DNA of 6,814 nucleotides from a virus. The stretch is from positions 1 through 6,814 of IMG/VR virus record IMGVR_UViG_3300005076_000239. One strand, given 5' to 3'. The translations under genes and the position numbers were made by a program. Below the pieces are notes generated by a model, which did not search any database, was not told where the DNA came from, and saw only the letters and a list, made by a program, of their open reading frames with translations. Shown here one piece after another: positions 4,957-6,814 of this stretch. How positions within the stretch are numbered: position 1 is the stretch's first letter; every line of letters starts with the position of its first letter.

Positions 4957-5427
4957 CTACGTACTTGATAAAAGGAATAATTCTCTTAAAGTTGCAATAC
5001 GCTTGCTAAACTGAGGTTTACTGTAATTTGTACGTACTGTTTCGTAGCCATAATCACGCAATTCTTTATAGAAAGTATGCAAATTACGTGCTTGTGTTTT
5101 TGAAACCGTACCAGCTTTTTTAACCGTTTTAAGGGTACTTAAAATAATTGAATAAGCCGTCAAATGATCAACATTTTCAATCGGTTTAAGATTCAAACGC
5201 GCCAAGTAATCCTTAGTAAATCCACACTTAAGTAAATTTGTGAAATTTCTAAAAAACTTCTCATCACCTAAATCAGATTGAACAGTACGAACACCGCGAT
5301 TTTCTAAATCACGATAAAATTTAAAAGCAGTATCAGCAATTGAAGTCGAAATAGAATCTTTGGCAGAAGCCTGCTCTAATGCTGAATAAATATTTTTAAA
5401 AACAGAATCATCATCAGTAAGTTTCAT
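4957..5427 (-). CDS. Probable nested in-frame gX-like product (156 aa, C-terminal part of the gII-like protein)
   Basis: The in-frame ATG at 5427 is preceded by AAAGGGGCAAAAT. The Met aligns with the M13 gX start (GQNMKLTDDDSV vs GDSMNIYDDSAV). Confidence 0.45.
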   Translation of the reverse strand: MKLTDDDSVFKNIYSALEQASAKDSISTSIADTAFKFYRDLENRGVRTVQSDLGDEKFFRNFTNLLKCGFTKDYLARLNLKPIENVDHLTAYSIILSTLKTVKKAGTVSKTQARNLHTFYKELRDYGYETVRTNYSKPQFSKRIATLRELFLLSST

Positions 5428-6306
5428 ATTTTGCCCCTTTAGAGCTTCAAACAGTTCTCGATTTGCACTTGTCCAGAGATTGCGTAAAAAATAAGGATGA
5501 TTGGCACGTTGATAGCGAATTAATTGAAATAAGTTTGTTGGTATATTGCGTTCTTTAAGAGCGTAGGCTTTGACACCAGTTTCAAATCGTAAAAGGCCCT
5601 TAGTAAAAATCTGTAAGTCAGGATTAGACATAACCTCAACAACACGCATTGCAGCTTTATCATTGGTTTTAGCCAATTTAATCTGATCCTGCAGCTGAGC
5701 CTGAAACTCACAGGATTTACCATAGACTTTACGAGCGAAACGCTTGCAGCGTTCAGAACCGAAATAGACAGTATTTTTATAGCTGGCATGCTTAGTAGAT
5801 TTGCGGATGTGTTCTGTTGAGATGTTCCGCAAAAACTCAATAGCACGTTCAACTTCACGATCATCACGTAAACGTGCGTGATACGTAACGTCAATTTGCA
5901 TTACTTCTGTCTCAGAGACAGCAAGCATGCCGTATAAAACAGGTTGAGCTTCTGCGAAATGACCAAGCATTTCTAAAGCACCCTCTTCTATCCAATCAGT
6001 TCCATAAACATTGTGACCCTGCAATATCTTTGCAGGCGAAGCTTTAAGTTCTACATGTGGCCATAACTTGCCCTCATGATGAAATTTCCAAGCCATCTTG
6101 GTAAATGACGTTGGCAATCTGTCATAAGGATGATTAAGCACTTGGTTTACTACATTGCCTTCATCATCCTTAAAAACACATCGAGCTTCGACACGTGGCA
6201 GATCAAGATTGAGTAAGTTGAAACCAAAGATACAATGACGCCCTTCACTGTCCATATCGACAAGTGACGCATCCACTGGTATCCGTAGTTTTAACATATC
6301 GTTCAT
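4957..6306 (-). CDS. gII: Rolling-circle replication initiator, homologue of Ff gene II protein
   Basis: It aligns from memory with M13 gpII: MNDMLKLRIPVDASLV vs MIDMLVLRLPFIDSLV; HPYDRLPTSFTKMAWKF vs HPFESLPTSYSGIAFKI; VELKASPAKILQGHNVYG vs VEIKASPAKVLQGHNVFG; SNPDLQIFTKGLLRFETGVK vs SNPDLLEFASGLVRFEARIK; NLFQLIRY vs NLFDAIRF. Confidence 0.93.
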   Translation of the reverse strand: MNDMLKLRIPVDASLVDMDSEGRHCIFGFNLLNLDLPRVEARCVFKDDEGNVVNQVLNHPYDRLPTSFTKMAWKFHHEGKLWPHVELKASPAKILQGHNVYGTDWIEEGALEMLGHFAEAQPVLYGMLAVSETEVMQIDVTYHARLRDDREVERAIEFLRNISTEHIRKSTKHASYKNTVYFGSERCKRFARKVYGKSCEFQAQLQDQIKLAKTNDKAAMRVVEVMSNPDLQIFTKGLLRFETGVKAYALKERNIPTNLFQLIRYQRANHPYFLRNLWTSANRELFEALKGQNMKLTDDDSVFKNIYSALEQASAKDSISTSIADTAFKFYRDLENRGVRTVQSDLGDEKFFRNFTNLLKCGFTKDYLARLNLKPIENVDHLTAYSIILSTLKTVKKAGTVSKTQARNLHTFYKELRDYGYETVRTNYSKPQFSKRIATLRELFLLSST

Positions 6307-6430
6307 TTGTCACAAATCACATGTCACATTTTGAACAATTTATACAATATCACATGTGACAAATCAACATATTTTATTATTATTTGTCACATATTACATA
6401 TCATGGTGTCACAAATGGCTATATCACAAA
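6304..6430. promoter_or_regulatory. Divergent control region between gII and the regulator: TGTCAC/TCACA iterons plus candidate back-to-back promoters
   Basis: TGTCAC occurs at 6308, 6322, 6385 and 6407, and inverted (GTGACA) at 6356. Relaxed TCACA copies lie at 6317, 6350 and 6424. Palindrome CACATGTG at 6351-6358. Candidate + promoter: GTGACA (6356-6361), 16 nt, TATTAT (6378-6383). Candidate - promoter: TTGATT (6367-6362), 17 nt, TATAAA (6344-6339). The iterons abut or overlap both start codons. Confidence 0.6.
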
Positions 6431-6609
6431 GATTAAGAGACGAAGAGTCTGAAATGATCGAGAAAAAAACACTCGATATCATGATAGAAAAAAAACTAAA
6501 AATTAAAGAAAGTGATGTAATACATGCGCTAATTAGAAAGCACATAAAAGAATTAACAGCAAATGACGTGCTGGAATATAGAAGAAAATATTTAGGGAAA
6601 GATGACTAA
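6415..6609 (+). CDS. 64-aa ribbon-helix-helix (Arc/MetJ/CopG-like) transcriptional regulator; candidate phage repressor
   Basis: MAISQRLRDEESEMIEKKTLDIMIEKKLKIKESDVIHALIRKHIKEL fits a beta-strand (ISQRLR), helix, helix pattern. It is divergent from gII, as rstR-type repressors are. An alternative start exists at 6403. The 100-aa track ORF from 6307 would be translated from the iteron DNA and is unlikely. No clear SD. Confidence 0.6.
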   Translation: MAISQRLRDEESEMIEKKTLDIMIEKKLKIKESDVIHALIRKHIKELTANDVLEYRRKYLGKDD

Positions 6610-6620
6610 TTAAGGTTAAA

Positions 6621-6671
6621 AAGTCTCATTTTCGAGACCTAAGTCCACTCTTGAGAACGTGGACTTTTTTT
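6621..6671 (-). promoter_or_regulatory. Plus-strand (viral-strand) replication origin core: f1-like nick-site hairpin plus an adjacent second hairpin
   Basis: The minus strand reads AAGTCCAC-GTTCTCAAGA-GTGGACTT, then AGGTCTC-gaaaat-GAGACTT. The f1 ori reads GAGTCCAC-GTTCTTTAATA-GTGGACTC, then TTGTTCC-aaac-TGGAACA. AGTCCACGTTCT and AGTGGACT are identical. It is on the same strand as the genes, as expected for the viral strand. Confidence 0.7.
6641..6671 (+). terminator. The same hairpin read on the + strand looks like an intrinsic terminator for the regulator gene (possible dual use)
   Basis: AAGTCCAC-tcttgagaac-GTGGACTT, an 8-bp stem with a 10-nt loop, runs into a T-run (6665-6671). It starts 32 nt after the regulator stop codon. 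Confidence 0.4.
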
Positions 6672-6687
6672 AGCCCTACCCTAAAGC

Positions 6688-6713
6688 AAAAAAAATCCTC
6701 ACTGGTGAGGATT
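6688..6713 (-). terminator. Rho-independent terminator on the minus strand (end of the long phage operon/IG transcript)
   Basis: The minus strand reads AATCCTCA-ccag-TGAGGATT followed by TTTTTT: an 8-bp perfect stem, a tetraloop and a T-run totalling 8 T. There is no T-run on the + strand side. Confidence 0.65.
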
Positions 6714-6721
6714 GAATAGAC

Positions 6722-6814
6722 ATTTCGTATAATGAAGATTGATGTTAAATAACGCCGATTTGCGACGGATATTGATGCAAATCGCCTATGTAACATAATC
6801 TTCGACCACATTAT
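6722..6814. repeat. Right copy of the terminal repeat, with the complete site A and a clipped site B of the dif-like inverted pair
   Basis: 6724-6814 is identical to 1-91. ATTTCGTATAA starts at 6722. The window ends at ...ACCACATTAT, 4 nt into the inverted XerC arm. Confidence 0.9.

Follow-up and report, generated by a model that had tools for sequence, protein, structure and literature searches.

A probable plus-strand rolling-circle origin in an Acinetobacter filamentous phage, homologous to the origins of f1 and IKe

The stretch of DNA analysed here, virus record IMGVR_UViG_3300005076_000239 of IMG/VR (positions 1 to 6,814; the window, 6,814 nucleotides (nt) long), is a small filamentous phage of Acinetobacter. 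Positions 6618–6671 very probably form the core of its plus-strand rolling-circle origin, homologous to domain A of the f1 and IKe origins. The core is located in non-coding DNA of the gene-sense strand; 358 nt downstream of it, in the same orientation, begins rep, which encodes the gpII-family initiator Rep. The long genes are all on the minus strand of the window, which is therefore the viral (gene-sense) strand. Such an origin annotation is new for Acinetobacter filamentous phages; the kind of element is already well known.

Origin core and its fold

The core is composed of the following elements, given in coordinates of the window.

6659–6666, minus strand: left arm of the nick hairpin, AAGTCCAC, homologous to GAGTCCAC of f1
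6649–6658, minus strand: loop of the nick hairpin, GTTCTCAAGA, which holds the predicted Rep nick
6641–6648, minus strand: right arm of the nick hairpin, GTGGACTT; in f1, gpII recognises a region that begins with GTGGACT
6621–6640, minus strand: second palindrome, AGGTCTC-GAAAAT-GAGACTT, with arms at 6640–6634 and 6627–6621
6618–6622, minus strand: T-run directly 3′ of the second palindrome, conserved in the family
6665–6671, plus strand: T7 run (A7 on the viral strand), terminator-like together with the hairpin

The arms of the nick hairpin, each 8 nt long, are 100% complementary in a repeat search, and the second palindrome pairs at six of its seven positions by Watson–Crick pairs and at the remaining one by a G–T pair. 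The motif AGTCCAC-N9–12-GTGGACT occurs a single time in the window and in none of 200 dinucleotide-preserving shuffles. When positions 6605–6680 of the minus strand are folded as single-stranded DNA (ssDNA), both hairpins dominate the structure (−13.4 kcal/mol, z = −3.96). The site combines an adjacent gpII-family initiator with a catalytic tyrosine, a viral-strand palindrome with a junction in its loop, a second inverted repeat directly 3′ and a non-coding position upstream of the initiator gene. An initial annotation, made from the sequence alone, had located the plus-strand origin here; the strand and position are correct, the neighbouring rep is of the gpII family and the core is common to about 100 relatives. 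The T-run at 6618–6622 can also pair with the A-run upstream of the nick hairpin, enclosing both hairpins.

Region 92–245 was considered as an alternative origin and rejected, as it folds modestly (z = −2.25) and has no f1-like motif. It is a candidate minus-strand origin or packaging signal.

Homology with the f1 and IKe origins

The f1 core (J02448) reads GGAGTCCACGTTCTTTAATAGTGGACTCTTGTTCCAAACTGGAACA, that is, GAGTCCAC GTTCTTTAATA GTGGACTC followed by TTGTTCC AAAC TGGAACA; the second palindrome of the window sits where f1 has this last element and where IKe has its second annotated origin stem-loop. Two stretches, AGTCCACGTTCT (12 nt) and AGTGGACT (8 nt), are identical in the window and f1, and these identities, given in the initial annotation, are exact against J02448. 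The same annotation had described the element as almost identical to f1, which applies to the nick hairpin only (20 of 27 aligned positions identical in alignment A2, described below), because the second-palindrome region matches f1 at 7 of 22 positions, about chance level. As in the window, domain A of f1, M13 and fd has GTCCAC-loop-GTGGACT on the viral strand, with a loop that opens GTTCT; the second palindrome is directly 3′ of the nick hairpin; and gene II follows downstream of the core, with which it shares its orientation. The f1 initiator belongs to the same Pfam family as the window Rep, and its catalytic Tyr197 aligns with Tyr195 of the latter.

The window and f1 differ in loop length (10 nt in the window, 11 nt in f1), in the base 5′ of the nick (C, or A, in the window; T in f1) and in the arms of the second palindrome, which are unrelated. 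f1 has a non-coding enhancer (domain B), whereas the window has instead an antisense regulator gene 9 nt past the core. Downstream of the core there is no room for an f1-type AT-rich non-coding enhancer of about 100 nt (sites for integration host factor were not searched for), because the stop codon of the regulator gene (6607–6609) lies 9 nt beyond the T-run. The window phage also differs from the Ff phages in its host, in lacking gene IV (gIV) and in carrying a dif-like hairpin, from which it is probably integrative.

In the GenBank record of IKe (X02139), two homologous stem-loops, at 6554–6580 and 6582–6599, are annotated as the viral-strand origin, and IKe and I2-2 (Lineavirus) share the two-stem-loop architecture of the window. 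The IKe loop, TATGTTTAATA, and the arms of its second palindrome, TTGCA and TGCAA, both differ from those of the window. IKe also has gIV, which the window lacks, and is not known to integrate. Like the window, IKe carries a small antisense open reading frame (ORF) of the window-regulator family between the origin and gene II. This ORF, of 65 amino acids (aa), is unannotated in the IKe intergenic region (X02139, complement of 6601–6798; 702–899 on the minus strand of our IKe locus, L002) and was assigned to the family at E = 4.9e-12 by an iterated profile search of a small local database.

Closer to the window in host, phage M02 has the same stem-loop pair 361 nt upstream of its rep. M02 and the Af phages and prophages (PMC11209303) share the host genus of the window and its order of elements, namely dif-like hairpin, origin core, antisense regulator and rep. 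The Rep of M02 is 40% identical to that of the window, and megablast gives no match between the two; M02-type cores have an 11-nt loop, GTCTTCTAATG, and an upstream G-run, whereas the window has an A-run. The papers on Acinetobacter (PMC11209303), Erwinia and UPphi filamentous phages contain no description of an origin, and a literature search with the f1 origin sequence as a string returned vector-sequence papers only. The likeness to f1 is less surprising than the initial annotation had implied: it is inherited together with Rep and is common to IKe, M02 and about 100 other elements.

Conservation and covariation among related loci

From viral contigs and species-representative genomes we collected 166 loci with genes for Rep relatives, and searched the Rep-sense strand for GTCCAC-N-GTGGAC followed by a small palindrome. 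The two-palindrome core was found in 112 of the 166 loci, mostly 350–400 nt upstream of rep; in many of the others, the locus was simply cut off too near rep to include it. The cores comprise 98–101 distinct versions, of which 98 are in alignment A2. GTGGACT is invariant across these 98 cores, although GTGGAC belonged to the pattern used for selection. That pattern also fixes the six inner pairs of the nick hairpin, so that only the outer pairs and the variant loci are informative.

The outermost pair of the nick hairpin covaries (GC in 55, AU in 28 and GU in 8 of the 98 cores), and all six pairs tested in the second palindrome do so as well, columns 45–52 for example being CG in 35 sequences and GC in 35. 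The observed covariation score was reached by none of 500 shuffles, and controls with slid partners scored far lower. Among loci without the exact motif, a compensated inner stem GTACAC..GTGTAC is present in Vibrio, Colwellia and Bergeyella loci and in a Flavobacteriaceae metagenome-assembled genome (MAG), and a compensated stem ATCCAC..GTGGAT in Psychrobacter. The resemblance to f1 is therefore one of homology: the core recurs at the same place beside related Reps, with compensated stems, and its counterpart in IKe is annotated as the origin.

The T-run after the second palindrome is conserved, with at least four T in seven positions in 69 of the 98 cores (columns 57–60 of A2 have 64–78 T of 98); f1 and IKe do not have it. 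Two loci contain repeated origin cores, at 510, 2550 and 4590 in L143 (2,040-nt spacing) and at 336 and 2934 in L019 (2,598-nt spacing). This suggests tandem mini-elements or replicons of origin plus rep without structural genes, such as RS1-like satellites or plasmids.

Predicted nick site

In f1, the nick is made between 5780T and 5781A, in GTTCTTT/AATA (the slash marks the cut), the recognition sequence runs from 5777 to 5791–5809, that is, from 4 bases 5′ of the cut to 11–29 bases 3′ of it, and gpII leaves a footprint over 5774–5813, domain A starting at 5769 (PMC5405960). These coordinates were checked against the J02448 sequence. All 98 distinct loops contain one pyrimidine/purine-purine (Y/RR) junction each, preceded by T in 95 loops and by C in the other 3. 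On its 5′ side the junction has 7 nt of loop in 89 of them, and on its 3′ side 4 nt in 67 and 3 nt in 27.

The sole Y/RR junction in the loop of the window is GTTCTC/AAGA, that is, C6653/A6652, and the window is most likely nicked there; the alternative, A6652/A6651, would apply if the distance from the left arm decides. The former is favoured, since in f1 it is the sequence 3′ of the cut that anchors recognition. The position predicted in the initial annotation, 6653/6652, coincides with this junction, and would thus follow a rule that holds in 98 of 98 loops. In the three closest relatives of the window (L004, L007 and L010; Reps 93–97% identical), the loop is GTTCTCTAGA and the junction GTTCTCT/AGA. 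The window loop differs from theirs by a private T-to-A change just before their junction position, and calling it a diverged loop, as had been done, overstates this single base. C at position −1 is also found in the natural cores of L069 and L127.

The Rep initiator and the phage genome

The initiator gene and the region beyond its 3′ end are as follows.

4957–6306, minus strand: Rep, gpII-family initiator, 449 aa, C-terminus truncated
4886–4981, minus strand: remnant of the conserved Rep C-terminus (IIPFIKYVEINFDQQVPSNFVEPKSTFSKIA, then a stop), out of frame through a 55-nt deletion

Rep matches Pfam Phage_CRI (1.5e-41) and G2P_X_C (4.4e-08) and PHROG 702, 'replication protein' (6e-96), and is about 34% identical to the gene II products of Ff, IKe and Erwinia PEar phages, which bears out its description as a clear gpII homologue. 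Tyr197 of f1 gpII forms the covalent link to the nicked DNA (PMC5405960); Tyr195 of the window Rep (codon 5724–5722), with which it aligns, is invariant in 17 of 17 aligned family members. Compared with L010, L004 and L007, the window has a 55-nt deletion near 4981 that frameshifts Rep, with loss of its conserved last ~50 residues (CGFSKAQLQNL..), so that Rep is 449 aa long against 490–503 aa in relatives. The deletion looks recent, as another frame still encodes the C-terminus that was lost. It also bears on the nicking assay proposed earlier for the 449-aa protein, which is a truncated form.

An exact look-up of the window Rep found no matching database protein, and a PDB sequence search with it gave no match. 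An AlphaFold model of Rep (predicted local distance difference test, pLDDT, 80) had no Foldseek match in the PDB at E ≤ 0.001; the weak hits were to TATA-box-binding-protein-like folds only (E ~0.06–0.3, template-modelling score ~0.2 on the query), from which we draw no conclusion. The Reps of the window clade contain an insertion of about 80 aa at residues ~310–390 (~5140–5380, minus strand), which resembles a second C-terminal (gpX-type) module (FKFYRDLENRG..CGFTKDYL compared with HTFYKELRDYG..CGFSKAQL).

Positions 1–91 of the window recur exactly at 6724–6814; this 91-nt terminal direct repeat shows the genome to be circular, with a length of 6,723 nt. This repeat spans the dif-like hairpin. 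Pfam and PHROG searches reveal an inovirus protein set composed of the gpII-family initiator, small coat-like proteins and the three proteins below.

Minus strand: pIII-like protein, 553 aa
Minus strand: Zot/pI-like protein, 445 aa
Minus strand: DUF2523 (pVI/Ace-like) protein

An ORF and family scan of the window found no secretin gene (gIV), nor space for one. The absence of gIV had been noted before, and the large ORFs, encoding Rep and the pIII-like, Zot/pI-like and DUF2523 proteins, agree with it. The earlier statement that the host differs from that of f1 is likewise borne out, since all named homologues in the best 120 Rep matches are from Acinetobacter. An Acinetobacter MAG includes a nearly identical contig, with a 97%-identical Rep, and the isolate Acinetobacter sp. 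ANC 4173 carries an 81% relative in its genome. Megablast with the whole window found no close DNA relative in the phage collection, and a scan of the window matched no Rfam family. Directly past the zot-like gene lies an antisense 63-aa ORF (244–435, plus strand) that has a hydrophobic segment and no family match, followed by a terminator-like hairpin at 219–235.

Antisense regulator and transcription termination

The following features flank the core.

6403–6609, plus strand: antisense regulator, 68 aa, PHROG 5219, between origin and rep
6307–6402, no strand assigned: divergent promoter/operator region with repeated TGTCACA and TGTGACA and inverted repeats I1–I3, I6, I10 and I14
6686–6713, minus strand: hairpin resembling an intrinsic terminator (8 pairs, 4-nt loop, −8.9 kcal/mol), then T8, just upstream of the origin

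The regulator resembles a ribbon-helix-helix protein in sequence. An antisense ORF of the same family is found at the same place in 92 of 109 related loci, most of the others having an XRE-like ORF of about 110 aa, and origin, antisense regulator and rep form a conserved unit. Regulator alleles shuffle independently of Rep, since L010 (Rep 97% identical) has an M02-type regulator and L012 (Rep 61% identical) a window-type one. Promoter-like sites are located at 6356–6383 (plus strand) and 6404–6376 (minus strand). The TGTCACA and TGTGACA motifs (ATTTGTCACA and its complement) are spread over 6300–6416, between regulator and rep, and are probable operators. The hairpin at 6686–6713 lies between the dif-like hairpin and the origin; transcription units thus converge on the origin from both sides.

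The RNA of the nick hairpin, read from the plus strand, begins 32 nt past the regulator stop codon; it has an 8-bp stem with four GC pairs, a 10-nt loop and a folding energy of −9.7 kcal/mol, and U7 comes directly after it. A consensus terminator scan did not call it, and found no other terminator-like site after the regulator gene. The viral strand has an A-run at this position in about 25 of the 98 cores; about 70 cores have a G-run there and so lack an antisense T-run. L004, with a 94%-identical Rep, has GGGGAAA where the window has the A-run, most of the family has GGGGA, and M02-type phages, whose regulator is of the same family, have no U-tract either. On the earlier proposal that the hairpin terminates the regulator gene, the evidence is divided: the stem and U7 of this genome fit it, whereas the long loop, the silent scan and the unconserved T-run do not. 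The hairpin may act as a terminator in this lineage. Termination is not a conserved property of the origin, because the T-run is present in only about one-quarter of the cores and absent in L004.

Module boundaries

Among relatives, the flanks upstream and downstream of the nick hairpin are poorly correlated (r = 0.27). Pairs of loci with at least 85% identity in one flank (120-nt windows) were taken, and those with less than 60% in the other flank were counted as discordant. Of these pairs, 29% are discordant when the hairpin is the dividing point, against 4% for a point 50 nt upstream; inside the regulator gene the figure is 0%, at the regulator–rep boundary 19% and in the upstream dif-like region 35–55%. 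A cluster-based count gives 12–16 excess combinations at the core and 0 at +200. The origin core is a frequent module boundary, as it would be if this were the point of initiation and termination of copying in mixed prophage arrays, a behaviour known from CTXphi. Junctions cannot be placed exactly at the nick, the resolution being insufficient and the hairpin identical in all partners.

Two inverted dif-like sites lie upstream of the origin on the viral strand, from 6724–6814 (equivalent to 1–91) to ~97. They read TTCGTATAATG-TGGTCGAAGA-TTATGTTA and the reverse complement of TTCGTATAATG-AAGAT-TGATGTTA, and the pair, also found in M02 and many relatives, folds into a long forked hairpin (z = −4.69). 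The pair looks like a folded single-stranded phage attachment site (attP) for XerCD, which we take to be of the CTXphi style. Canonical-looking dif sites (TTCGTATAATGTATATTATGTTA) are present at prophage ends in L003 (3885–3990), L024, L091, L103 and L105.

CTXphi and RS1 replicate by rolling circle from tandem prophages integrated at dif, and, as far as is known, RstA of CTXphi is of another Rep family and its origin sequence differs too. As in CTXphi, the origin in the group of the window adjoins a module of rep and regulator, tandem and mixed prophage arrays occur at dif, and mosaics are bounded at the origin. Replication of the CTXphi type from tandem prophages is alluded to in PMC7307601 and PMC11209303. 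A tentative and somewhat unlikely proposal is that the nick hairpin is a swap point for unrelated Acinetobacter inoviruses, kept universal so that modules remain interchangeable, and that in lineages with the A/T-run it is also the terminator of the regulator. In a mixed dif array, rolling-circle copying that began at one origin and ended at the following one would yield a hybrid with the structural half from one phage and the origin–regulator–rep half from another. If this is true, termination of the regulator transcript at the hairpin in A/T-run lineages would link expression of the immunity gene to origin activity.

Alternative explanations

Only the shortness of the motif speaks for a chance resemblance to f1; its absence from the 200 shuffles and the recurrence of the same context in 112 related loci refute this explanation, which we give virtually no chance. 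It is also very unlikely that the hairpin and T7 are chiefly a terminator or insulator of the regulator gene, with an incidental likeness to f1. The stem, its stability, the U-tract and the distance from the stop codon would suit such a role, as would the fact that this is the only terminator-like site of the gene. However, hairpin and loop sequence are kept in f1, which has no antisense gene, and the ~70 G-run cores, like L004 with its GGGGAAA, keep the hairpin without an antisense T-run. The 10-nt loop exceeds the usual terminator range (3–8 nt), in line with the silent scan, and a terminator role would conserve neither the loop sequence nor the strand-specific Y/RR junction. Less remote, if still unlikely, is that 6618–6671 is an origin by descent in a copy that is impaired in replication and depends on a helper Rep in trans, or that the record contains sequencing or assembly errors. 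The 55-nt deletion and the private change at the nick mean that the genome is possibly defective or mis-assembled: the loop is GTTCTCAAGA where L004, L007 and L010 have GTTCTCTAGA, with T at that position in 93–95 of 98 cores, and the frameshifted Rep has a C-terminus that is still readable out of frame and no identical database protein. By contrast, C at −1 is natural in L069 and L127, so C/AAGA may still be cleavable, the exact 91-nt self-overlap is as expected of a replicating circle, and the truncated Rep, with its N-terminal domain and catalytic tyrosine intact, may keep its nicking activity. Several points weigh against a functional origin at 6618–6671 more generally. Experimental evidence for such origins is confined to Ff and IKe; an f1-like enhancer region is absent from the window; without the conserved end of Rep this copy may not fire; and all other members of the clade have T directly before the nick position, whereas the window does not. 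Moreover, the invariance of the inner pairs carries no information, because the loci were selected on those pairs, and the boundary analysis is of low resolution and counts related, non-independent pairs.

A further question concerns the second palindrome, whose divergence from f1 had led to the suggestion of a natural specificity-swap pair for gpII-family initiators. The arms change with compensation between the window (GTCTC with GAGAC) and L010 (GTCCG with CGGAC), the Reps of which are about 97% identical, and a simple specificity determinant is disfavoured because the palindrome changes in this way between near-identical Reps. Selection for pairing fits the second palindrome better than does a sequence read by a protein. 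That the palindrome tracks the regulator allele was ruled out, as L004 has the palindrome of the window with an M02-type regulator. The second palindrome is possibly, though not probably, a structure-dependent element (a hairpin in ssDNA or RNA, perhaps a viral-sense terminator together with the T-run) rather than a sequence-specific Rep site. The compensated arms, the balance of CG and GC in columns 45–52 and the T-run in 69 of 98 cores favour this, but the homologous region of f1 is inside the gpII footprint (5774–5813), a symmetric dimer site would keep palindromy too, and f1 and IKe have no T-run.

Proposed mechanism and implications

By analogy with f1, an origin at 6618–6671 would operate as follows. 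Rep would bind the double-stranded replicative form at the right arm, GTGGACT, and the adjacent palindrome, and would cut the viral strand in the loop, most likely at C6653/A6652, Tyr195 becoming joined to the 5′ end. The free 3′-OH would then prime rolling-circle synthesis by the host polymerase. After one round, the regenerated hairpin would be cut and resealed, and it is at this step that the left arm would matter. In the f1 origin deletions of Dotto, Horiuchi and Zinder, the left arm was reportedly needed for termination and not for initiation, which agrees with the start of domain A at 5769.

These results do not change the understanding of the origin mechanism, and a specialist would expect an f1-like nick site beside a gpII homologue. 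What they provide is a base-level origin annotation for an uncharacterised Acinetobacter inovirus, with a possible use in phagemid or ssDNA-production tools for Acinetobacter, and an aid in reading tandem and mixed prophage arrays at dif. They also provide a rule, namely GTCCAC, a loop with one Y/RR junction, GTGGACT and then a palindrome, that locates the plus-strand origins of the gpII family. The rule covers about 100 phages, prophages and small replicons of Acinetobacter, Pseudomonas, Psychrobacter, Pseudoalteromonas, Vibrio and others. The parts most worth keeping are this comparative rule and the pattern of module boundaries.

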